Notes under the pieces: model-generated | Database searches by the model: none | Told to the model about the DNA's origin: nothing | What the model saw: only the letters and a program-made list of their open reading frames with translations | Position numbers and translations under genes: made by a program | In this document: positions 32,105-41,624 of the stretch, one piece after another | How positions within the stretch are numbered: position 1 is the first letter of the stretch | How the letters are laid out: each line of letters starts with the position of its first letter | From: Alphaproteobacteria bacterium | GTDB taxonomy: Bacteria; Pseudomonadota; Alphaproteobacteria; CBDDJK01 | Assembly: GCA_965229605.1 (NCBI GenBank) | Contig: OZ245892.1 | Span: forward strand, 1,911,238-1,975,237 | Direction: 5' to 3' | Length of the DNA stretch: 64,000 nt

Positions 32105-35100
32105 CTAAGTAGCGGGAGCGGTGTCTTCTTCCAATGTATCCGGGCTTTCCTCAGCCAGCTTTTTGGCTTCGCGTTTCTTTTGCCGGGCTTCGCGCTTCTT
32201 TTGACGATTTGCCCGACCCCGCGCCAGAAAGCCCGATACCTGTTCGCGCAGCATCAATAAAGACGGGGTGACAATCAGGGTCAGGATGGTGGCAAATCCC
32301 AGCCCGAAGACAATGGCGGTTGAAAGCTGCTGCCACCATTGGGTTGAAGGGGCGCCCTGGCTGATCTCGCGGGTGGCAAAATCAATATTCAATTTCATCA
32401 CCATCGGAATCAAACCAAGAATGGTGGTGGTGGTGGTCAATAAAACAGGCCGCAGCCTCTGCGCGCCGGTCAAGAGAATCGCTGTCCGGCCATTTTCAGC
32501 GGTTTTGCGTAATTGATCGAATGTATCAATCAGCACGATATTATTATTGACCACAATTCCCGCAAGCGCGATCACGCCGATCCCGCTCATCACAATACTG
32601 AACGGCTGATTGATCACCAGCAGCCCGATCATCACCCCGATGGTTGACATGATCACCGCCGTCAGAATCAAAAGGGCCGAATAGAAACTGTTAAACTGCG
32701 TGATCAGAATCACCGCAATCAGGAACAGGGCGATTGAAAAGGCTTTCATCAGGAAAGACTGCGATTTCTTCTGTTCCTCATCCTCGCCTTTAAAACTGAC
32801 CTGCACGGCTTCGGGGATCTCCAGCGTTTCCATAAACGCCGCAAGCTCATTGACCGCATCATTGGCCAAAGCCCCCGGCATCATATCTGCCGCAACAAAC
32901 ATAATCCGTTGCCCGTCAATCCGTTGCAAGGTCCCGGTTTTTGGCGTTGGCTCCCGGGTCAGAAAATTGCCAACCGGAATAGAACCACTGCCCCCGGTCA
33001 CCCGCAACCGGTCAAGCTGATCAATGGTCCGGTATTCCTTGGGCATCCGCAAGAGAATATCAATTTCTTCATCCGCATCATTCGGGCGATAGGAATCCAG
33101 CTTGAAACCGCGTGTCACCATCTGGACAAAGCCGCCCAATGTTGAAATATCAACATCAAATTTGGTGGCCTGGGCACGGTCCACCGCCAGCCGCCATTCA
33201 ATCCCGGGAATAGGCCGTGAATCCTCGATATTGGTCAAATTCGGCATATTATCCATGCGGGTGCGGATTTGTGCAATTAGCGGGTCCATCAGGGCCGGAT
33301 TCACCGATGAAAGCTGAATTTTTACCGCTTTGCCAACCGGAGGACCAGCTTCGGGCTGGCGCACCTCGACCACAATGCCGCTGATCTGGGCGGTGCGCCG
33401 CCGCATCTCGGTCTTAAGTTCCTCTGCCGGGGGCCGCTTGTCCCAATCTTCAAGCTCCAGCTGCAATTTGCCGATAATATCCTCGGCATCCTCGTTCCGG
33501 CTGCGCAAAATTCCGCTTTGCGCATAAACAGATTTAAACACCGCCTGTTCGGCCTGAATGGCCAGCACCTGTTCTTCAACCCGCCGCACCAGCTGATCCT
33601 GCTCCAGAATCGACAGATTGCCACGCGCATAGATGTTGACCAGTAATTGTTCCGGCTCGACCTTGGGGAAGAACTCGACCCCGCGCCCGTATTTTCCATA
33701 GGTCATCCAGGAGCCGACAAGAACCATCAAAGCCAGGATCAGAATGACTATCGGCACCCGCAAGGCCACCCCCAGCACCCGGACATAGAGACCGGTAAAG
33801 CCGCTGATTTTCAGTACATCGGCTTCGCTTTGAATGTGACTGGCAGAAAGTTTGGACAATTCCTTATTAACCAGCAGAGGCGGCATCCGGCCTTCGTTAA
33901 AGCGTCGAATGGCAATGAAAACGCCAAACCCGAACAGCCCGCCAAGAAAGAGGGAAAGCGGCGGCAGGATACCGACCAGCGACCCCGCTTGATCGGCAGA
34001 AGCAGGCACCAGGGCTTGTGATCCGAAAAAGAACAACCCGGCCCCGCAGGCGGTCAGCAAAATGCCGGAGAGAAGAATACCAAGGGAGTTAAGGGCTGTG
34101 CCCAGGGTCGGCAGGAAAATCAGAGCCATGGCCAGCGAGGCCGACAGGGTTGCAATCAGGGTGATAGGCAGGAATTTCATAAATTCGCCGACCACACCGG
34201 GCCAGAACATCAGCGGCAGGAAGGCAGCCAGCGTGGTCAGGGTAGAGGCGATGATCGGCAAGGACATGCGCTTTGCCGCCAGCGCATAGGCTTCGGTTTT
34301 ATCAAGCCCTTCGGACAGTTTTCGGTCTGCAAATTCGGAAACAACAATCGCCCCGTCCACCAGCATTCCGACCGCGAGGATTAAAGAGAATAACACCACG
34401 ATATTAACAGTCAGCCCGGCGGTAAAGAGGATAAGGATTCCGGTCAGGAATGAACCCGGAATCGCCATCCCGACCAGAATACCGCCGCGCACACCAAGGG
34501 CAGCAATCACGACAATCATCACCAGCAGAATGGCGGCAATCACGTTATTCTGCAAATCGGTGAGCATATTGCGGATGTCGCTGGATTTATCCTGCGAAAA
34601 GGTAATATTAATCGAATCGGGCCAATTTTTTGATTCTTTGGCAACGACAGCGCGGACCTGTTCAATGGTTTCAATGATATTCACGCCGACCCGCTTTGAA
34701 ACATCAATCCCTAAAGCGGCGTCTCCATTGAGGCGGGCAAAGGAATCGGAGTCTTTAAAGCTGCGCCGGACTTCGGCAATATCACGAATGCGGACAATGC
34801 CCTCGCCATTGCTGAAAAGCGGCATATTCAGGATATCAACCACCGATTCAAAAATACCCGGCACTTTAATCGTAAAGCGCCCGGCCCCTGAATCCAGCGC
34901 ACCAGCCGCCACCAGCTGATTATCGGCCCGCAATTTATTGATCAGCTGAGTTGGCTCCAGCTGATAGCTTTCCAGCTGTGCAGGATTGACGATCAGTTCA
35001 ACAATTTCATCGCGATCCCCGGTCATCGTGGCTTCCAGCACATTTGGAATTTCTTCAATCCGGTCTTGTAAAAGCCGGGCATATTTCAACAATGTCCGTT

Positions 35101-35545
35101 CCGGGGCCGGGCCGGAAAGCGTCACCACAAGCACCGGGAAAAGCGATAAATTGACCTCATACACGGTCGGATCATCGGTGCCATCCGGCAAATCGGGCGT
35201 GACATTGTCCACCGCTTCGCGGACATCAGCCAGTGCCGTGTCGACATCAAATCCGGCCTCAAACTCCAGAAGAACATTGCCGCCGCCTTCATAGGCACTG
35301 GAGCGCATTTCAACCGCCCCTTCAACCGAGGACAATTCTTTCTCCAGCGGCCGGACCAATAGCCGTTCTGAATCCTCTGGCGAAATACCTTCAAAAGAAA
35401 GCGTCACATAAAGGATCGGGATATTGATATCAGGATCAGCCTCTTTCGGGATGGTCACATACGAATAGGCTCCGGCAATCAGCACAAAGATCAGGACCGA
35501 CACAACCATGCGGGAGCGGCTGATCGCCGCGTCAATCAACGTCAT
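32105..35545 (-). CDS. RND efflux transporter permease, AcrB/HAE1 family
   Basis: 1146 aa with 12 TM segments, two large periplasmic loops and a C-terminal Lys/Arg-rich tail. Confidence 0.85.
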   Translation of the reverse strand: MTLIDAAISRSRMVVSVLIFVLIAGAYSYVTIPKEADPDINIPILYVTLSFEGISPEDSERLLVRPLEKELSSVEGAVEMRSSAYEGGGNVLLEFEAGFDVDTALADVREAVDNVTPDLPDGTDDPTVYEVNLSLFPVLVVTLSGPAPERTLLKYARLLQDRIEEIPNVLEATMTGDRDEIVELIVNPAQLESYQLEPTQLINKLRADNQLVAAGALDSGAGRFTIKVPGIFESVVDILNMPLFSNGEGIVRIRDIAEVRRSFKDSDSFARLNGDAALGIDVSKRVGVNIIETIEQVRAVVAKESKNWPDSINITFSQDKSSDIRNMLTDLQNNVIAAILLVMIVVIAALGVRGGILVGMAIPGSFLTGILILFTAGLTVNIVVLFSLILAVGMLVDGAIVVSEFADRKLSEGLDKTEAYALAAKRMSLPIIASTLTTLAAFLPLMFWPGVVGEFMKFLPITLIATLSASLAMALIFLPTLGTALNSLGILLSGILLTACGAGLFFFGSQALVPASADQAGSLVGILPPLSLFLGGLFGFGVFIAIRRFNEGRMPPLLVNKELSKLSASHIQSEADVLKISGFTGLYVRVLGVALRVPIVILILALMVLVGSWMTYGKYGRGVEFFPKVEPEQLLVNIYARGNLSILEQDQLVRRVEEQVLAIQAEQAVFKSVYAQSGILRSRNEDAEDIIGKLQLELEDWDKRPPAEELKTEMRRRTAQISGIVVEVRQPEAGPPVGKAVKIQLSSVNPALMDPLIAQIRTRMDNMPNLTNIEDSRPIPGIEWRLAVDRAQATKFDVDISTLGGFVQMVTRGFKLDSYRPNDADEEIDILLRMPKEYRTIDQLDRLRVTGGSGSIPVGNFLTREPTPKTGTLQRIDGQRIMFVAADMMPGALANDAVNELAAFMETLEIPEAVQVSFKGEDEEQKKSQSFLMKAFSIALFLIAVILITQFNSFYSALLILTAVIMSTIGVMIGLLVINQPFSIVMSGIGVIALAGIVVNNNIVLIDTFDQLRKTAENGRTAILLTGAQRLRPVLLTTTTTILGLIPMVMKLNIDFATREISQGAPSTQWWQQLSTAIVFGLGFATILTLIVTPSLLMLREQVSGFLARGRANRQKKREARQKKREAKKLAEESPDTLEEDTAPAT

Positions 35546-35577
35546 CTTTTTATCTCCTGCATCCTGTTATCAGATAA

Positions 35578-36807
35578 TCAGCCACCTTGCTCGTCAAGAG
35601 CCCCGCCAAAAACATTCAGGCTGGCGGTGGGTAGCACCCGGGTGCCGGTGCCGGCAAATTCCTGGCCCACGCTGATCACATCCAGAGTTTCAGGCAGCGG
35701 AGCCTCAAGGCCAGTCACCCACATGCCTTCAGCCCGGTCCGATAAAATACTGACCGGATGGAAAAGCACAATATCATCGGGGCCAACCGATTTTATCCCG
35801 ACCTGACCAAGATTATTAAGGGTCAGCCAGGCCGGACTGATCTTGTGGGCCTGGCTGGAAGTCAAGGACACATCAAGGCCAACCGTCATACCGGCTGCCA
35901 GCTTTATATCGGGATTCGGGGTTTCAATTTCAATACGGAAGCTGCGGGTGCGCTGGTCACTGACCGGCGATATCCGGGTCACACGGGCATCAATCAGGGG
36001 CTGGCCAATAAATTTTAATTGCACCGGGGCCTGGTTCTGTATGCGTCCATAATCACGCTCGGGGATTTGGGCGCTCACCAGAACCGGATCAAGATCAGCC
36101 AGTTCAATCGTCGTATCACCACTGGTCAGATAATCACCAATTTCAACATGCCGTGCCGATATAATCGCATCAAAAGGCGCGGTGATCGCGGTTTTTTGCA
36201 TATCGCGCTCAATCGCATCCAGCTCTGCCCTGGCGCGTGCAAGCGTGGCCTCGGCCTCCAGCCGCCGGACGTCGCTTTGAAAACCCTTGCTGGCCAGTTT
36301 GCCCGCCGCTTCGCTTTCAATCTCGGCCTGTTTCAAAAAGGCCTGCGCTTGCGCCAGTTTCGCCGGGCGTCCATCCAGATCAAGTGCAACCAGCACGGTA
36401 CCTGCCCGCACAAGATCACCAATATTGCCCTTTACCCGCGCAACGCGCCCATTGGTTTCCGCCCGCAAGGCAACCGTGCGCGAAGGTGCGCTTTCGCCAG
36501 TTAACCTTATCTGGGCCAGATAATTCCGGGTCATGCTGGTGACGGTTTGAACACGCTGTATGTCTTGGGCGACATCCTGGTTCGCATCTGCTTGGTCCGT
36601 ATCGGTCGCTTCTTGTGTCGGCTCTTGAACCGGTTTTTGGGCCAGTGTTGCTCCGGCTGCTGATTGTGTCGGGGAGGGAGAAGCCTCCGGCAGCTCAATC
36701 CCGGTTTTGGCACCGACCCAGCTGATAAACCAGGGCTGGCCCGACAGAATCCATCCGCCGCTCACAACAGCAACCAGAAAAGCAATGAGAAGAGACATTT
36801 TGCGCAT
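35578..36807 (-). CDS. RND efflux periplasmic adaptor (membrane fusion protein)
   Basis: HlyD/MFP-like barrel-sandwich and lipoyl motifs. Start chosen as the ATG at 36807 (MRKMSLLIAF...), preceded by an AAGGA ribosome-binding site. The track ORF extends 27 codons further. Confidence 0.8.
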   Translation of the reverse strand: MRKMSLLIAFLVAVVSGGWILSGQPWFISWVGAKTGIELPEASPSPTQSAAGATLAQKPVQEPTQEATDTDQADANQDVAQDIQRVQTVTSMTRNYLAQIRLTGESAPSRTVALRAETNGRVARVKGNIGDLVRAGTVLVALDLDGRPAKLAQAQAFLKQAEIESEAAGKLASKGFQSDVRRLEAEATLARARAELDAIERDMQKTAITAPFDAIISARHVEIGDYLTSGDTTIELADLDPVLVSAQIPERDYGRIQNQAPVQLKFIGQPLIDARVTRISPVSDQRTRSFRIEIETPNPDIKLAAGMTVGLDVSLTSSQAHKISPAWLTLNNLGQVGIKSVGPDDIVLFHPVSILSDRAEGMWVTGLEAPLPETLDVISVGQEFAGTGTRVLPTASLNVFGGALDEQGG

Positions 36808-36953
36808 GTAAAAAATCCTTAAAGTCGGCCCTTGAAACAATGTATGCGAGACGTAGCTGTTATACTTGTTTAACGGGCCTGATGTCACGATGATTATTCA
36901 TTTATTGCCTCTCCAAGCAAGGCGGTCTATAGAGAATTCACTCACATGCACAA

Positions 36954-37306
36954 GCGGACGTGGTGGAATGGTAGACACAAGAGACTTGGCAACCATGTTG
37001 AGTGCCTTTTGGGAAACCTTGAGGGTAGAACTGCTCAAATTCGGGGAAACCTTAACAGGTGAGGCTGATGGCAATCCCGAGCGAAGCCCGCAAGTAGCTG
37101 TTATATATAGCCGTTATGCGTGTAACAGTTATGGGGAACGTGTAGAGACTAGACGGGCAGCACCTACGGCACAAGCCAGGGTGAAGGGATAGTCCAGACT
37201 ACAAACGCGGCAGGTTGATGACTTGTGGCGGCAGTGAAAGCTGTGGTGGTATGAAAATCTCTCGATCGATATGATCGTGCGGGTTCGAGTCCCGCCGTCC
37301 GCACCA
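36954..37306 (+). tRNA. tRNA-Leu(UAA) gene interrupted by a group I intron. Exon 1 is 36954-36987, exon 2 is 37254-37306, and the CCA is encoded.
   Basis: Acceptor GCGGACG/CGUCCGC, D-arm UGGUGGAAUGGUAGACAC, anticodon stem AGAGA/UCUCU, loop C-U-U | A-A-A-A, a long variable arm CGAUCGAUAUGAUCG, and T-arm GCGGGUUCGAGUCCCGC. It is near-identical in layout to bacterial tRNA-Leu(UAA). Confidence 0.8.
36988..37253 (+). ncRNA. Group I self-splicing intron (266 nt) in the anticodon loop of tRNA-Leu(UAA), between U34 and A35
   Basis: The exon ACUU can pair with intron GAGU (about 37000-37006), giving a U.G at the 5' splice site. Core P7-like elements are present: GAGACUAGACGGGCAGC and GGAUAGUCCAGACUACA. 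The terminal nucleotide is G (37253). No ORF lies inside. Confidence 0.7.
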
Positions 37307-37564
37307 CCAGACTAACCGACTGATAATAAAGAGTTATACCAAGGAAATTCGTGCTTGCAAAGCCGCGCGGTCTTTTGCTTGACAAGTCCCGGTCATTAGG
37401 CCAAGTTATACGCTCAGGAGCAGGAGAGAGGATTTTAGCCTGAAGATTTTCATAAAAAATTTTTAAAAATTGAAATGAGAAGCTGAACAGGTAAATATGG
37501 GGGGCATCAAAATCGTTGAAAAAACAGATATAGTGCGCGTGAACAAATCGCAAAGGAATAAACC

Positions 37565-38497
37565 ATGCTAAAACTCATCTTGAAGCGTTTCGGCTCGATG
37601 GTTTTGATCATGCTGACGGTGACAGTCCTGCTGTTTTTAATCAACGAAGGAGACCCAACACTGGTTGCCCGTTCAGTCCTCGGGCCCTATGCGCAACCCG
37701 AACAGCTGAATTTATGGGTTGAGAATAACGGCTATAATCGCCCGATGTATGTGCGTTATTTTGATTGGCTGTTCCGCATGATGCAAGGCGATCTGGGCGA
37801 TTCCATTATCTATAAACGCCCGGTTAATGAAATTTTCTGGGACCGGCTGGGTCAGACAGGTATTCTGGCGGGTGTCACCTTTGTTTTCATGGTGATCGTG
37901 GCCTTGGTGATGGGGGTTCTGGCAGGAATGCGCGAAGGCTCAACCCTTGACCGGTCAATCTCCGTCTTTTCGATTTTCACCACCTCCATCCCCGAATATG
38001 CCAGTGCCGTCTTCCTTGCCTTTATCTTTGTGTTTACCTTGCAGTGGTTGCCGGGAACAAGTTCAATGTCCGAAGGATTTAATGTCCTGGAGCTGGTCTT
38101 GCCGGTCATGGTGCTGACATTATACGGCTTTGGCTATATTGCCCGCATGGTGCGCGCTTCAATGGCCGAGGTTATGACCACACAATATATTCGCACCGCG
38201 ATTTTAAAGGGCTTGCCCTATCGCAAGGTTATTCTGAAACATGCCTTGCGCAATGCGCTGATTGCCCCGTTTACGGTTATTCTTTTGCAGATTAACTGGT
38301 TATTATCCGGCGTTGTCGTCACAGAATATGCTTTTGCCTATAAAGGGTTTGGCGCCCTTTTGCTTGAAGCAGCCTTGCGCCGGGATATTTTTGTGATTGA
38401 AGCCTGCGGGCTGGCGGCAGTGTTTGTGGCGGTGATGACACAAACAATCGGGGATATCGGCTATGCCTATCTCAACCCGCGTATCCGATTGAAATAA
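37565..38497 (+). CDS. Peptide/nickel-type ABC transporter permease (DppB/OppB/YejB-like)
   Basis: 310 aa, six TM segments, EAA motif region. Confidence 0.75.
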   Translation: MLKLILKRFGSMVLIMLTVTVLLFLINEGDPTLVARSVLGPYAQPEQLNLWVENNGYNRPMYVRYFDWLFRMMQGDLGDSIIYKRPVNEIFWDRLGQTGILAGVTFVFMVIVALVMGVLAGMREGSTLDRSISVFSIFTTSIPEYASAVFLAFIFVFTLQWLPGTSSMSEGFNVLELVLPVMVLTLYGFGYIARMVRASMAEVMTTQYIRTAILKGLPYRKVILKHALRNALIAPFTVILLQINWLLSGVVVTEYAFAYKGFGALLLEAALRRDIFVIEACGLAAVFVAVMTQTIGDIGYAYLNPRIRLK

Positions 38498-38507
38498 GTG
38501 GAGAAGT

Positions 38508-39497
38508 ATGATGAGCGCAACAAAATCTGTCGACGCCAGTTCTTCTTCCCAAACTCAAGAAGCAGGAAAAAACCTTGGTGATCCGATGACAGAAGCAGCA
38601 AATCCGCCTTCTGTATCCAGGCCAGGGGGCTCGCCGCCGCGACCCTCCACCATTAAGCTGACGTTCTCACGGCTTTTGCTGCTGCGCGAAAGCTGGCCCG
38701 GAATGATCGGCGCAGGCTTGGTCGGGATGTTCGTCCTTTTAGCCGTTTTTGCGCCGCTTGTTGCGCCTTATGCCCCGAATGAATCAATGTTGCCTTTTGC
38801 CTATCCCGGCACTGAAGCGCCGGATGGGGGGACCCTCTGGCTTGGCACCGATCATACCGGACGCGACATTCTCTCCCGCATTATCTGGGGCGGACAACGC
38901 GTTCTCTTCTATGCAACCGCCGCAACATTCTGCGCCTATGTGGTTGGTATTTTTATGGGACTGGCAGCCGGATATTTCCGGGGCTGGATCGATGAAGTCC
39001 TGTCTTTTGTTGCCAACGTCATTTTATCCTTCCCGATCATGGTTCTCTATGTCCTGATTATCGCCAAACTCGGGGCTTCCGGGGCCAATATCATCTTTGC
39101 CGTTGTCTTTGCCTCCTCGCCCGGCATCATGCGTATTGTGCGCGGGCTGACCATGGATATTGCAACACGCGACTATATTGCAGCCTCGCAGACACGCGGC
39201 GAAGGACCATGGTATATCATGCTGGTTGAAATTCTCCCCAATGCCAAAGGCCCGCTGATTGTCGATTTCTGCTTGCGTATGGGCTATACGACCATCACCA
39301 TCGGGGCCTTGGGCTTTTTGGGCCTTGGCTTGCCGCCACCTGACCCGGACTGGGGCGGCATGATTGCCGAAACACGGGCTTTCGTCACGGGTGGCTTCCC
39401 GCATATGTCGCTTATGCCTGCAATGGCGGTGTCGCTGCTGGTTCTGGGATTCAATCTGCTTGCCGATGGTATTCGTGAAGTCTCCCTGAAAGATTAA
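38508..39497 (+). CDS. Peptide/nickel-type ABC transporter permease (DppC/OppC/YejE-like)
   Basis: 329 aa with a hydrophilic N-terminal extension and then the permease core. The start may be a downstream ATG. Confidence 0.7.
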   Translation: MMSATKSVDASSSSQTQEAGKNLGDPMTEAANPPSVSRPGGSPPRPSTIKLTFSRLLLLRESWPGMIGAGLVGMFVLLAVFAPLVAPYAPNESMLPFAYPGTEAPDGGTLWLGTDHTGRDILSRIIWGGQRVLFYATAATFCAYVVGIFMGLAAGYFRGWIDEVLSFVANVILSFPIMVLYVLIIAKLGASGANIIFAVVFASSPGIMRIVRGLTMDIATRDYIAASQTRGEGPWYIMLVEILPNAKGPLIVDFCLRMGYTTITIGALGFLGLGLPPPDPDWGGMIAETRAFVTGGFPHMSLMPAMAVSLLVLGFNLLADGIREVSLKD

Positions 39498-39530
39498 AAA
39501 CGAAAGATTAGAAACGAAGGATGTAACATC

Positions 39531-41624
39531 ATGGCATCTTCTGCAAAAGAAGCCCCGCTGCTGGAATGTAATGGATTATGTATTTCCTATTTCACCCGGG
39601 CGGGCGAAATACCGGCGGTCAAGGACTTTAACCTGACCCTCTATCCCGGCGAAGCGGTTGGGATCGTTGGCGAATCTGGCTGCGGAAAGTCAACTGTCGC
39701 CATGGCGATCATGCAGTATATGGGCAAAAACGGTGGAGTCACCGGCGGCGAAATTCGCTTCAAAGGCCGGGATATGACGGAAATGACCGAAGGCGAATTG
39801 CGCCATCTGCGCGGCTCCGACATTGCCATGATTTATCAAGAACCGATGTCAGCCCTTAACCCGTCCATGCCGATTGGACGGCAGCTGGCTGAAGTACTGA
39901 TCACCCATGAAAATCTGCAAGAAGAAGAAGCCCTTGAACGGGCCAAAAATATGCTGGCCAAGGTCAAACTTCCCGACCCGGCCCGGGTGCTAACCGCCTA
40001 TCCGCATGAAATATCTGGTGGTCAGCAACAACGGGTTGTGATTGCCATGGCCCTTTTGTCTAATCCTTCGCTGCTTTTGCTGGATGAACCCACCACCGCC
40101 CTTGATGTCACGGTGGAGGCTGGCATTGTCAAACTGATTAAAGAAATCAGTGCTGAAAGCGGGGCCTCGATGATCTATATTTCCCATAATATGGGGCTGA
40201 TCAAGGAAACCTGTGACCGGATTTGTGTTATGTATTCCGGGGTTGCCGTGGAAATGGGAAGCGTGGCCGAAGTCTTTGATGATATGAAACATCCCTATAC
40301 GCGCGGATTGTTTGGCTCGATCCCGCTGCCGACCGCCGATAAATATTCCGCCCCGCTGAAACCTATTCGCGGGCAACTGCCCTTGCCGCACCAACGGCCG
40401 CCGGGATGCTATTTTGGCCCACGCTGCGACTTTTTCATCGAAGGCCAATGCGACAATCCGGATAAAGTCTATTGGGAAGTCTGCGACGATGATTCCGGTC
40501 ATGCCGTTCGCTGTGCGCGTTGGCAAAACATCGACTGGGGAGAGCTGGACCAGACCTATGAAACCCGCGAAGAGATCGAAGTCGGCGAACCGGTTCTGGC
40601 CATTGAGGACATGCAGAAATATTATGAAGTCCGCGATAATACATTGGCCGCCATGCTCAGCGGGGAAACGTCTAAATTCGTAAAGGCCAACCAGCAGATC
40701 AATTTGGAAGCAAGGCGCAGCGAAACCGTTGCCATCGTCGGGGAATCCGGCTGCGGCAAATCAACACTGGCCAAAGTCCTGATGGGGCTGGAAACAGCCA
40801 CGGGCGGGAGCATTTCTTTCCTTGATAAAGATATCGGGCAGATCAAGGTTACCGACCGCACCAAGGATGAAATCGGGGCCTTGCAGATGGTCTTTCAAAA
40901 CCCGAACGAGACCTTGAATCCCAGCCACTCTGTTGGCAGCCAGATTGCCCGCGTGGTGCGAAAATTCGGCACTGCCCAATCCGAAACCGAGGTTCAGGAC
41001 CGGGTTGATGAACTGCTTGATCTGGTCAAATTGCCGCGCATTTTCAAATACCGCAAACCGCGCCAGCTTTCCGGTGGGCAAAAGCAGCGCATCGGCATTG
41101 CCCGCGCCTTTGCCGGCACGCCAAAAGTGGTGATTGCCGATGAACCGGTCTCGGCCCTTGATGTGTCGGTGCAAGCGGCGGTTACCGGGCTCTTGATGGA
41201 TATCCAGCGGCAATATGAAACAACCCTGCTGTTTATCAGTCATGATTTGTCGGTTGTCCGCTATCTGGCTGACCGGGTTGTCGTTATGTATCTGGGGCAT
41301 ATTGTTGAACAAGGCACAGTTGATCAGGTCTTCGCCCCGCCCTATCATCCGTATACCGAAGCCCTTTTGTCAGCCGTGCCGATTGCCGACACCAGTATCG
41401 AAAAGCGCGAAATTGTGCTTGAAGGGAATTTGCCCTCTGTTATTGACCCGCCAAAAGGCTGCCCGTTCTCAACCCGCTGCCCGCGCAAAATTGACGGGCT
41501 GTGCGATGATACTCCGGCGCCGGTTCAAAAGGCAGATGATCAGCATGACATCGCCTGTCATATTCCGATGGAAGAATTAAAGAAAGTCGAGCCCGTTATT
41601 GTCCAGGCAAAATCCGCCGCGTAA
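39531..41624 (+). CDS. ABC transporter ATP-binding protein with two fused ATPase cassettes (DppD+DppF / YejF-like)
   Basis: Two Walker A motifs (GESGCGKST twice), two LSGGQ signatures and oligopeptide-type C-terminal extensions. 697 aa. Confidence 0.8.
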   Translation: MASSAKEAPLLECNGLCISYFTRAGEIPAVKDFNLTLYPGEAVGIVGESGCGKSTVAMAIMQYMGKNGGVTGGEIRFKGRDMTEMTEGELRHLRGSDIAMIYQEPMSALNPSMPIGRQLAEVLITHENLQEEEALERAKNMLAKVKLPDPARVLTAYPHEISGGQQQRVVIAMALLSNPSLLLLDEPTTALDVTVEAGIVKLIKEISAESGASMIYISHNMGLIKETCDRICVMYSGVAVEMGSVAEVFDDMKHPYTRGLFGSIPLPTADKYSAPLKPIRGQLPLPHQRPPGCYFGPRCDFFIEGQCDNPDKVYWEVCDDDSGHAVRCARWQNIDWGELDQTYETREEIEVGEPVLAIEDMQKYYEVRDNTLAAMLSGETSKFVKANQQINLEARRSETVAIVGESGCGKSTLAKVLMGLETATGGSISFLDKDIGQIKVTDRTKDEIGALQMVFQNPNETLNPSHSVGSQIARVVRKFGTAQSETEVQDRVDELLDLVKLPRIFKYRKPRQLSGGQKQRIGIARAFAGTPKVVIADEPVSALDVSVQAAVTGLLMDIQRQYETTLLFISHDLSVVRYLADRVVVMYLGHIVEQGTVDQVFAPPYHPYTEALLSAVPIADTSIEKREIVLEGNLPSVIDPPKGCPFSTRCPRKIDGLCDDTPAPVQKADDQHDIACHIPMEELKKVEPVIVQAKSAA

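Follow-up and report, generated by a model that had tools for sequence, protein, structure and literature searches.

The interrupted tRNA gene at 36954-37306 raises two questions: what kind of element separates its halves, and is the gene likely to give rise to a functional tRNA? The window under study is a 64,000-nt stretch of OZ245892.1; all coordinates are window positions, and all features of the gene lie on the + strand. An earlier note on this DNA had proposed that the halves form a complete type II tRNA-Leu(UAA), and that a 266-nt insert is placed exactly between anticodon nucleotides 34 and 35. Exon 1 (36954-36987, 34 nt, tRNA nucleotides 1-34) contains the acceptor 5' strand, the D arm, the anticodon stem 5' strand AGAGA, and C32, U33 and U34, and its 3' end reads ...AGAGACUU. 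Exon 2 (37254-37306, 53 nt, tRNA nucleotides 35-87) begins with AAAAUCUCU and provides A35 and A36, the UCUCU strand of the anticodon stem (3' side), the long variable arm, the T arm and the acceptor 3' strand. Once joined, the 87 nt were called tRNA-Leu(taa), type II, by ARAGORN, with stems of 7 bp in the acceptor, 3 bp in the D arm and 5 bp in the variable arm, besides the AGAGA/UCUCU anticodon stem and a T arm; the 3' end of the spliced sequence carries discriminator A73 followed by an encoded CCA. Applied to the genomic sequence in intron mode, ARAGORN recovered tRNA-Leu(taa) i(35,266), that is, a 266-nt intron (36988-37253) after U34. Both proposals were thereby borne out. With default settings, ARAGORN reported 0 tRNAs in the whole 64-kb window.

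UUA codons are in use in this genome (25 long ORFs contain 75 of them among 12,424 codons), so a tRNA-Leu with a UAA anticodon is needed; the gene may be essential. The tRNA helices are paired in 96-100% of cases among 30 homologues, with compensatory changes. On the + strand, no ORF is contained in the intron, which was correctly described as short, ORF-less and devoid of a homing endonuclease: an endonuclease ORF (LAGLIDADG, GIY-YIG, HNH or similar), expected of a mobile intron, was not found on this strand of the 266 nt. Frames of 40 aa or more that overlap the intron are limited to one of 108 aa, which opens with TTG before the tRNA, one of 40 aa, and portions of two longer ones on the - strand.

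To which family does the insert belong? The Rfam model RF00028 (Intron_gpI), recommended in the note as a check, gave a significant match at 36978-37209, covering the full model (1-253), with E 9.9e-10 and 50.0 bits, a score that sits exactly on the gathering score of 50. This match was the sole Rfam match in the 64 kb. For plasmid copies of the gene and two sibling genomes, RF00028 falls below threshold, and a threshold-level Rfam score is a characteristic of the class 'Leu.3Ug'. This class is one of four classical bacterial tRNA intron classes, and the Rfam group I model has no bacterial seeds (Williams 2020, bioRxiv 10.1101/2020.01.27.920355). A profile made from 106 bacterial tRNA-Leu introns, a family gathered with an 18-mer taken from the window intron itself, yielded a single match in the window (nhmmer, E 1.5e-47), with an envelope of 36989-37253 that covers model positions 7-226 of 227 and reaches the terminal guanosine (omega G). 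Covariation was assessed on 30 homologues. Standard pairs occupied 95.3% of 2506 pair cells, compared to 34-44% when partners were moved by 1-3 columns as a control; 46 of the 85 pairs vary on both sides, and none of 500 shuffles matched any of the observed measures. We conclude with high confidence that an ORF-less, IC3-like group I intron of class 'Leu.3Ug' splits the tRNA-Leu(UAA) between U34 and A35, and that it would be removed by the mechanism proposed below.

All core helices from P1 to P9 can be drawn in the window intron. In P1 (36984-37003), exon ACUU and intron GG (36984-36989) pair with the guide UUGAGU (36998-37003), and the helix contains three G.U pairs. The ACUU/GAGU pairing, anticipated by the note, places the wobble U36987.G37000 (U34.G) at the 5' splice site; this pair is U.G in 29 of the 30 homologues and C-G in one. 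A short P10 might form between U36998-U36999 and A37254-A37255. The hairpin P2 (37005-37024) is capped by the GAAA tetraloop L2 (37013-37016). Its stem has a tandem U.U/U.U internal loop and a deletion of 3 nt relative to siblings, and seven of its eight pairs are changed on both sides across homologues. The two strands of P3, CUGCUC (37031-37036) and GGGCAG (37155-37160), are paired in 100% of cells in the 30 homologues. P4 (37041-37080) joins UCGGGG (37041-37046) to UCCCGA (37075-37080) and encloses J4/5, P5 (CC 37050-37051 with GG 37070-37071) and P5a (37056-37058 with 37065-37067); at the outer pair of P5, the 30 homologues divide evenly between C-G (15) and G-C (15). The P6 region (37081-37141) is made up of P6 (GCG 37081-37083 with CGU 37139-37141), P6a (CCC 37087-37089 with GGG 37134-37136) and the long hairpin P6b (37095-37103 with 37123-37131).

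The motifs GACUA and UAGUC, singled out in the note as P7-like, are the P7 strands. On the 5' side (37145-37151), G37145 and a bulged A37146 precede GACUA (37147-37151); the 3' side (37190-37195) reads UAGUCC, of which UAGUC is 37190-37194. The six pairs, namely G37145-C37195, G37147-C37194 and then ACUA/UAGU, are all invariant in the 30 homologues. By analogy, the guanosine-binding pair would be G37147-C37194, beside the bulged A37146, an arrangement that presumably parallels the A263 bulge and G264-C311 of Tetrahymena. The P3/P7 pseudoknot and the bulge next to a G-C pair are both present. P8 (37161-37183) is a CACC/GGUG hairpin with an inner GGC/GCC stem. The internal loops of P5 and P8 are located at the expected places, with sequences unlike the canonical 11-nt GAAA receptor. 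The P9 domain (37198-37250) is a three-way junction, in which ACUAC (37198-37202) pairs with GUGGU (37246-37250) and from which P9a (37206-37215 with 37221-37230) and P9b (37231-37244, with a GAAA tetraloop at 37236-37239) emerge; both of these covary across homologues. The last nucleotide before the 3' splice site, G37253, is omega G, the terminal G that the note had recognized, and all 106 family members end alike.

From this structure and its conservation, the tRNA-Leu(UAA) precursor is predicted to be spliced, probably by the intron RNA itself. The gene would be transcribed from a conserved TTGCCT-17-TATAGA element, and the intron RNA would form the helices P1 to P9. Docked in the P7 pocket (G37147-C37194, beside A37146), a free guanosine would attack the phosphodiester after U36987, which is presented by the U.G wobble of P1. 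The terminal G37253 would next occupy the same pocket, and the 3'-OH of U34 would attack after G37253, with the anticodon stem and the short P10 assisting. Joining of the exons would create the anticodon loop CUUAAAA, and RNase P together with the usual end processing would deliver the 87-nt tRNA.

The element invoked for transcription is a promoter-like one at 36905-36933 (+ strand), with TTGCCT (36905-36910), a 17-nt spacer and TATAGA (36928-36933). A strict consensus scan called neither a promoter nor an intrinsic terminator at the tRNA gene. However, 6 of 6 sibling loci, including those with a different upstream gene, retain the block ...TTGCCTCTC.A.GC.AGGCGGT.TATAGAG..., whereas the sequence farther upstream diverges among siblings. 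Such conservation suggests that TTGCCT-17-TATAGA acts as a promoter. Two repeats were also observed. The 12-mer GTAGCTGTTATA occurs twice, upstream of the gene (36853) and in P6b (37094), for 0.04 occurrences expected by chance. It was considered as a possible binding site or small repeat element. The siblings retain the upstream CTGTTATACTTG... block without the preceding GTAG, and their P6b differs. The pair is most likely a coincidence or a local templated insertion. The 11-mer GTGGTGGAATG / GTGGTGGTATG, with copies in exon 1 and at the 3' end of the intron, was attributed to chance.

The sibling genomes provided a measure of the constraint on the gene. At 6 of 6 sibling loci, from two ENA assemblies, the intron is found at the identical site. 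Its core is identical to that of the siblings at 154-156 of 161 positions (96-97%), and the exons at 85 of 87, both differences being located in the variable-arm loop; exon 1 is unchanged in all six genomes. By comparison, identity is approximately 65% at third codon positions in the neighboring permease gene and 50-70% in the intergenic flanks. Since the core is so much better conserved than neighboring synonymous sites, it is under selection. The third P6 pair is G-C in the window and the six siblings, compared to C-G in 29 of 29 other homologues of the alignment, and by its distribution this is a lineage-specific compensatory double change. Peripheral elements behave differently. The window has a P6b sequence of its own, while the six siblings share another, shorter one; four siblings have a hairpin extension of 29-30 nt in P8, in two sequence variants; and the siblings' P9 is ACCAC/GUGGU, with C-G where the window has U.G. 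These peripheral insertions all fold as hairpin extensions. Judging from these alignments, P2, P6b, P8 and P9a can vary freely and the core is under purifying selection.

As for the surroundings, four siblings have the flanking genes of the window on both sides, and three have another upstream gene with the same downstream genes; one of them (L259) belongs to both groups, its called genes resembling the first and its upstream DNA the second. Because the site and flanks are shared despite a synonymous divergence of approximately 35%, the intron is, by this comparison, a permanent component of the gene and inherited vertically within the lineage.

Where the gene came from is a separate matter. 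The tRNA-Leu(UAA) gene with its intron, or the intron alone, might be a fairly recent import from another lineage by way of plasmids, phages or recombination, a mobile cassette instead of a long-standing vertical resident. Rhodobacteraceae, Hoeflea, Hyphomicrobiales, Pacificimonas and one unclassified alphaproteobacterial MAG have mature tRNAs 97-99% identical to that of the window, and the gammaproteobacteria Microbulbifer and Carnimonas have ones that are 94-97% identical to it. The window intron, on the other hand, is only about 70% identical to the introns of these near-identical tRNAs, which are 74-91% identical to one another and differ from it in the type of the P5 pair. Candidate vehicles exist as well: enterobacterial resistance plasmids carry intact intron-bearing tRNA-Leu(UAA) genes, and the core 18-mer is present on IMG/VR contigs, including phage-size ones with tRNA arrays. 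However, exon near-identity across classes is weak evidence, as tRNA exons are short and highly constrained. Furthermore, the presence of the intron in the same gene of all six siblings, with shared flanks and at such synonymous divergence, argues against import, and neither a homing endonuclease, an integrase nor a repeat boundary adjoins the gene, whose neighbors are housekeeping genes. A recent import thus seems rather unlikely; it concerns origin and is compatible with the splicing mechanism.

Support for the view, put forward in the note, that the genome is of alphaproteobacterial type is only indirect: a Hoeflea sp. and a Hyphomicrobiales MAG have mature tRNAs 97-98% identical to that of the window, and among plasmid-borne proteins, two flanking proteins have their best homologues in the alphaproteobacteria Neorhizobium (61.8%) and Niveispirillum (53.5%).

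A further proposal, which we hold to be doubtful, is that in this uncultured lineage exons and intron have different histories and that peripheral loops turn over quickly among close genomes, several of which share a sample. Regarding the first part, the exons are near-identical to those of a group of alpha- and gammaproteobacteria, mostly of marine genera, and the intron would come from another sub-lineage. Regarding the second, P8 is either short or provided with one of two unrelated 29-30-nt inserts, and the P6b of the window is unlike the version common to the siblings. If true, different histories would imply that recombination or reverse splicing replaces introns among tRNA-Leu genes without an endonuclease, and fast-changing loops could distinguish strains, as P6b does in Nostoc.

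Could the gene instead be a decaying pseudogene, whose intron no longer splices, with another tRNA decoding UUA? The borderline Rfam score, the mismatches in P2, the wobble-rich P1 and the blank default tRNA scan could be read in this way, and a second tRNA-Leu(UAA) copy is possible beyond the 64 kb, in the remainder of a genome of approximately 2.7 Mb. Decay would nevertheless not be expected to leave a core conserved at 96-97% against approximately 65% at neutral sites, exons perfectly conserved apart from the variable-arm loop, a compensatory change in P6, or a promoter-like block kept in siblings; moreover, no pair of the catalytic core is broken, and the locus has both U-1 and omega G. 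This reading is disfavored, and we consider it very improbable. Finally, a chance juxtaposition of tRNA-like halves around an unrelated sequence has nothing in its favor except the borderline Rfam score and deserves practically no credence, as it is refuted by the family profile (E 1.5e-47), by the exon context common to 106 homologues and by the covariation that backs the fold.

We return to the preferred interpretation, a Leu.3Ug group I intron, and to its distribution. The note had held that introns at this tRNA and site are rarely reported in proteobacteria. This did not hold: a scan of species-level genomes for exact matches to one 18-mer from the intron core detected it in at least 120 genomes, with approximately 60 named alphaproteobacteria among the matches listed. 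All 106 evaluable matches listed were tRNA-Leu introns at the same insertion site. The context was CUU/AAAA, with U-1, in 103 of them; the remaining three were CUC/AAAA in tRNA-Leu(CAA). Raw ARAGORN mislabelled 31 homologues as Ser(aga), Phe(aaa/gaa), Ala and others, with the splice site 1-3 bases off, and re-anchoring on ACUU/...G/AAAAU restored tRNA-Leu in 106 of 106. The hosts of these 106 listed members are Alphaproteobacteria, Acidobacteriota, Gammaproteobacteria, Binatia and one Limnocylindria MAG. Intron length in the family is 200-279 nt (median 234), and at 266 nt the window intron is at the long end because of its lineage-specific P6b hairpin. The window locus is a divergent member, 64-80% identical to the 106 genome copies over aligned columns of exons and intron, and about 70% over intron columns alone. 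A metagenome scan with the lineage-specific 14-mer ATCCCGAGCGAAGC found the intron core nearby in 0 of 120 loci listed; the pattern is too short, and its matches were discarded as chance ones. A gamma-proteobacterial tRNA-Leu(UAA) intron was reportedly described by Vepritskiy et al. in J Bacteriol in 2002. Overall, the class is common in alphaproteobacteria and acidobacteria and also present on E. coli plasmids, and the window case is an ordinary one.

The locus thus brings little biological news, and its value is practical. Routine annotation misses the intron-split tRNA-Leu(UAA), given that default finders report 0 tRNAs and that the Rfam group I model scores at or below threshold across the class; as a result, affected genomes seem to be without their sole UUA-reading tRNA. 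The lineage also offers a clean in-silico case of a constrained core next to freely varying P2, P6b, P8 and P9a. An observation made outside the window is of more interest than the window locus, of which it is a by-product: the aac(3)-IId gentamicin-resistance module is accompanied by a tRNA-Leu(UAA) gene that is intact, has escaped annotation and contains an intron of the same family; this gene is present in approximately 12% of complete E. coli genomes.

How does the window intron compare with known ones? The Leu.3Ug class (Williams 2020) has the same tRNA, the CUU/...g/AAAA context, and the same helices, among them the three-way P9 and its GAAA hairpin. Its seed Ncf2.Leu.3Ug (Williams 2020), whose nearest relatives among the fetched loci are Sphingomonas introns, is 74% identical to the window intron overall, and the two share the 23-mer GUAGAGACUAGACGGGCAGCACC and the motif AAGGGAUAGUCCAGAC without a change. 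Other features set the window intron apart: it starts with GG, which makes two G.U pairs in P1, where other family members usually have AA, and its P6 pair is G-C instead of C-G. With the cyanobacterial and plastid trnL(UAA) intron (Anabaena/Nostoc; Sel1.Leu.3Ug), it shares the U34/A35 site, identical in position as the note had stated, as well as the U.G, omega G, the lack of an ORF and the IC3-type fold. P6b is a hypervariable peripheral element in Nostoc (PMC4476775), and it is hypervariable in the window lineage too. Pairwise identity to Sel1 from Synechococcus elongatus is nevertheless 63%, and introns of other tRNAs are as close or closer (Arg.5Ug, 66%; fMet.2Ug, 67%); the P3 strand is GGGAGC in Sel1 and GGGCAG in the window.

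The Azoarcus tRNA-Ile(CAU) intron is an IC3 intron of known crystal structure, and a tRNA-Arg(CCU) intron was reportedly found in Agrobacterium by Reinhold-Hurek and Shub in 1992. Both have the same compact architecture as the window intron, an identical P7/J6-7 core (GUAGAGACUAGACGG...AUAGUCC), and GAAA tetraloops in L2 and the P9 domain. They differ in residing in another tRNA, at another anticodon-loop position (5Ug, after position 36), and in being 58% identical to the window intron. The P5/P8 receptors of Azoarcus are canonical (CCUAAG...UAUGG), compared to CCUUAAC...GAUGG and CCUACGG...CCAGGG in the window, and P9, which is simple in Azoarcus, is a three-way junction in the window.

In silico splicing and a reading of positions 36700-37600 bore out to the base the split gene described in an earlier note. 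On the + strand, exon 1 occupies 36954-36987 (34 nt) and exon 2 occupies 37254-37306 (53 nt, with the CCA encoded at its end), on either side of a 266-nt insert (36988-37253) whose last base is G. The joined exons form an 87-mer called as tRNA-Leu(taa) by ARAGORN, with an acceptor stem of 7 bp, a D stem of 3 bp, an anticodon stem AGAGA/UCUCU with the loop CUUAAAA, a variable arm of 5 bp and a T arm. Two checks had been suggested, an intron-aware tRNA search and a scan with the Rfam group I model RF00028 (Intron_gpI). In intron mode on genomic DNA, ARAGORN returned tRNA-Leu(taa) i(35,266); the default scan returned 0 tRNAs across the whole 64-kb window. Intron_gpI was the sole Rfam match on the window, at 36978-37209, with 50.0 bits (E 9.9e-10) for a gathering score of 50; the score is borderline because none of the seeds of this model is bacterial (Williams 2020, bioRxiv 10.1101/2020.01.27.920355). 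No ORF is contained within the intron on the + strand, in agreement with its earlier description as ORF-less. UUA, which is decoded only by a tRNA-Leu with U34, makes up 75 of the 12,424 codons in 25 long ORFs of the window.

With the Williams 2020 seed alignment as a guide, the canonical elements were drawn by hand and then mapped onto the window sequence (+ strand). P1 pairs ACUU|GG (36984-36989) with UUGAGU (36998-37003) and places U36987.G37000 at the splice site. It is followed by P2 (37005-37024, with a GAAA loop), P3 (CUGCUC 37031-37036 with GGGCAG 37155-37160), P4 (UCGGGG with UCCCGA), P5 and P5a (inside 37041-37080), P6 (GCG with CGU), P6a, and P6b, a 9-bp stem (37095-37103 with 37123-37131). 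P8 lies at 37161-37183, the P9 domain (37198-37250) is a three-way junction with a second GAAA loop on the P9b hairpin, and the terminal omega G is 37253. An unconstrained minimum-free-energy fold gives P2, P4, P5, P5a, P6, P6a, P6b, P8, P9a and P9b. In P7, a G, the bulged A37146 and GACUA (37145-37151) face UAGUCC (37190-37195); a bulged A, then G-C and A-U pairs, is also how the guanosine-binding site of Tetrahymena is arranged, and this part of P7 is a putative guanosine-binding site.

A sequence profile built from 106 related introns, the window being left out, gave a single match on the 64 kb, with an envelope of 36989-37253 (E 1.5e-47, 156.6 bits) spanning model positions 7-226 of 227; all 106 introns contain the 18-mer that retrieved them. 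Covariation was analysed on a 30-sequence alignment for the hand-drawn structure, which has 19 helices and 85 pairs. Standard pairs made up 95.3% of 2506 cells; shuffles gave 84.7%, and sliding the 3' partners by 1-3 columns gave 34-44%. Both sides had changed in 46 pairs (26 in shuffles), the covariation score was 0.324 (0.127 in shuffles), and in 500 shuffles none of the five observed measures was reached. P7 was invariant, P3 and P4 were paired at 100%, and compensatory changes were found in P2, P5, P6a, P8, P9a, P9b and all tRNA stems. At the third pair of P6, the window has G-C and the 29 other aligned sequences all have C-G; this swap is a lineage-specific double compensatory substitution. 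Together with the comparison of sibling genomes, the anatomy, family profile and covariation uphold the central reading of the earlier note. What interrupts this tRNA-Leu(UAA) gene is a group I intron that lacks an ORF, is structurally intact and is maintained by selection. The intron most likely self-splices, and would do so by the standard two-step mechanism initiated by guanosine.

Six sibling loci (L255-L260) from two ENA assemblies, on contigs of up to 2.73 Mb, were reached via the 90% protein cluster of the neighbouring ABC ATPase. In all six, a tRNA-Leu(UAA) is interrupted where the window gene is, by an intron of 252, 281 or 282 nt, and P6 has the G-C variant seen in the window. Compared to the window, their exons are identical at 85 of 87 positions and the intron core, that is, outside P2, P6b, the P8 loop and P9a, at 154-156 of 161 (96-97%). 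Identity is 65-67% at third codon positions of the adjacent permease gene, 52-70% in upstream intergenic DNA and about 50% downstream. Differences within the intron are limited to peripheral elements, all of which fold as hairpin extensions: a 3-nt indel in P2 (37005-37024), a P6b region (37090-37133) unlike the version common to all six siblings, an insert of 29-30 nt in the P8 loop (37165-37180) of four siblings, in two unrelated versions, the loop being otherwise short, and compensated changes in P9, P9a and P9b (P9a region 37206-37230). A conserved core with a variable periphery is characteristic of purifying selection on a functional core, with the intron inherited vertically within the lineage. 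Hypervariability of P6b is familiar in the Nostoc trnL intron (PMC4476775). Five of the six siblings come from the same ENA assembly. These closely related genomes differ by whole peripheral hairpins, which could be used as a strain-level marker.

The tRNA gene is flanked on one side by a divergent RND efflux pair (32105-36888, - strand) and on the other by an Opp/Nik-type ABC transporter (37565-41624), and around these lie the housekeeping genes argF, hslO, xerC, ligA, pheST, leuA and ftsH. The GC fraction near the tRNA gene is about 0.51-0.54, and no integrase or island boundary adjoins it. A promoter-like block on the + strand (36905-36933; TTGCCT, 17 nt, TATAGA), not called by a consensus scan, is kept in the siblings even with a different upstream gene. 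The exact 12-mer GTAGCTGTTATA occurs both upstream of the tRNA gene (36853-36864) and in the P6b stem (37094-37105), where chance would give 0.04; in the siblings, the upstream CTGTTATACTTG... block is retained and the 12-mer is in neither place. The repeat is probably a coincidence or a local templated insertion.

The mature tRNA is 97-98% identical to those of Hoeflea sp. and a Hyphomicrobiales MAG, and two flanking proteins have alphaproteobacterial best matches (Neorhizobium 61.8%, Niveispirillum 53.5%) in a plasmid database dominated by Enterobacterales. This suggests an alphaproteobacterial affinity of the host. The exons share 97-99% identity with those of five alphaproteobacterial loci (L036, L006, L061, L004, L034) and 94-97% with those of two gammaproteobacteria (L046, L035), seven loci of mostly marine genera with the AGAGA anticodon stem and introns of 241-244 nt. 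Between the window intron and these introns, however, identity is only about 70%; theirs are 74-91% identical among themselves, and the window intron has the other P5 pair type. This discord could reflect intron replacement, gene transfer, or merely strong constraint on short exons.

Relatives were searched with the exact 18-mer AGAGACUAGACGGGCAGC (J6/7-P7-P3') in one genome per bacterial species, and at least 120 loci were found. Leaving out 12 with the match at the locus edge and 2 unclear cases, 106 among the matches listed were evaluable; in 31 loci the ARAGORN splice site was 1-3 bases off, giving impossible anticodons, and was corrected before counting. In all 106, a tRNA-Leu is split at the same position as in the window and the intron ends in omega G; the anticodon is UAA, with U-1, in 103 and CAA, with C-1, in 3, and intron lengths are 200-279 nt (median 234). 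By record titles, the matches listed include about 60 named Alphaproteobacteria (Bradyrhizobium, Rhizobium, Hoeflea, Sphingomonas, Sphingobium, Rhodobacter, Roseovarius, Azospirillum, Reyranella, Methylocella, Asticcacaulis and Phenylobacterium among them), about 36 Acidobacteriota, 3 Binatia, 1 Limnocylindria, and a few Gammaproteobacteria (Halioglobus, Carnimonas, Microbulbifer). At L016 (Pacificispira spongiicola) and L118 (a second locus of Bradyrhizobium sp. LMTR 3), neither a split tRNA-Leu nor an Rfam group I match at the gathering score was found around the core; either locus may hold a fragment of an intron, or an intron placed in a different context. The core was also present on 13 IMG/VR contigs (L242-L254; for example L245, L250 and L253, from contigs of 143-281 kb). 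Some are phage-size with tRNA arrays that hold two or three separate Intron_gpI matches; such contigs are possible vehicles for the spread of tRNA introns.

Introns of this family also occur on enterobacterial plasmids, in pCTX-M3 (NC_004464.2 61823-62121; L262 2363-2661) and an E. coli plasmid (LR890263.1; L261 2501-2797). There, an apparently intact tRNA-Leu(UAA) is split after U34 by an intron of 211-213 nt (E about 4e-46 against the family profile), and in silico splicing yields an 86-nt tRNA-Leu (ARAGORN). The gene lies between ISCfr1 and IS26 and adjoins aac(3)-IId and the tmrB-like ATPase. In the literature searched, no report was found that connects tmrB with a tRNA or a group I intron. 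The window pre-tRNA matched 1270 PLSDB plasmids, mostly of Escherichia, Klebsiella and Salmonella, and 655 of 5426 complete E. coli genomes matched the pCTX-M3 copy, nearly all with a copy at least 99% identical. Among the fetched loci, the nearest relatives come from Alphaproteobacteria (82.8% and 80.5%). RefSeq annotates nothing at the plasmid gene, and the Rfam gathering threshold misses the intron: L261 and L262 score below it, as do the siblings L255 and L256. With default ARAGORN, or RF00028 at its gathering threshold, genomes with an intron-split tRNA-Leu(UAA) will thus seem to lack that tRNA.

Among the seed sequences of Williams 2020, pairwise identity to the window intron was highest for Ncf2.Leu.3Ug (74%), followed by fMet.2Ug (67%), Arg.5Ug (66%), the cyanobacterial Sel1.Leu.3Ug (63%), Leu.3Cg (61%) and Azoarcus Ile2.5Ug (58%). 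Ncf2 itself was nearest, among the fetched loci, to Sphingomonas introns (87%). A vertical origin shared by the proteobacterial and cyanobacterial introns is beyond what such pairwise identities settle. The three tRNA-Leu(CAA) genes split after C (CUC/AAAA), L078 (Acidobacteriota), L102 (Binatia) and L113 (Limnocylindria), place the Leu.3Cg type, which Williams 2020 (bioRxiv 10.1101/2020.01.27.920355) reported from Proteobacteria only, in three phyla beyond them. Leu.3Ug is one of four classical classes, all of subgroup IC3 (bioRxiv 10.1101/2020.01.27.920355). The class to which the window intron belongs is large and already catalogued, and the window provides an additional, somewhat divergent member of it.
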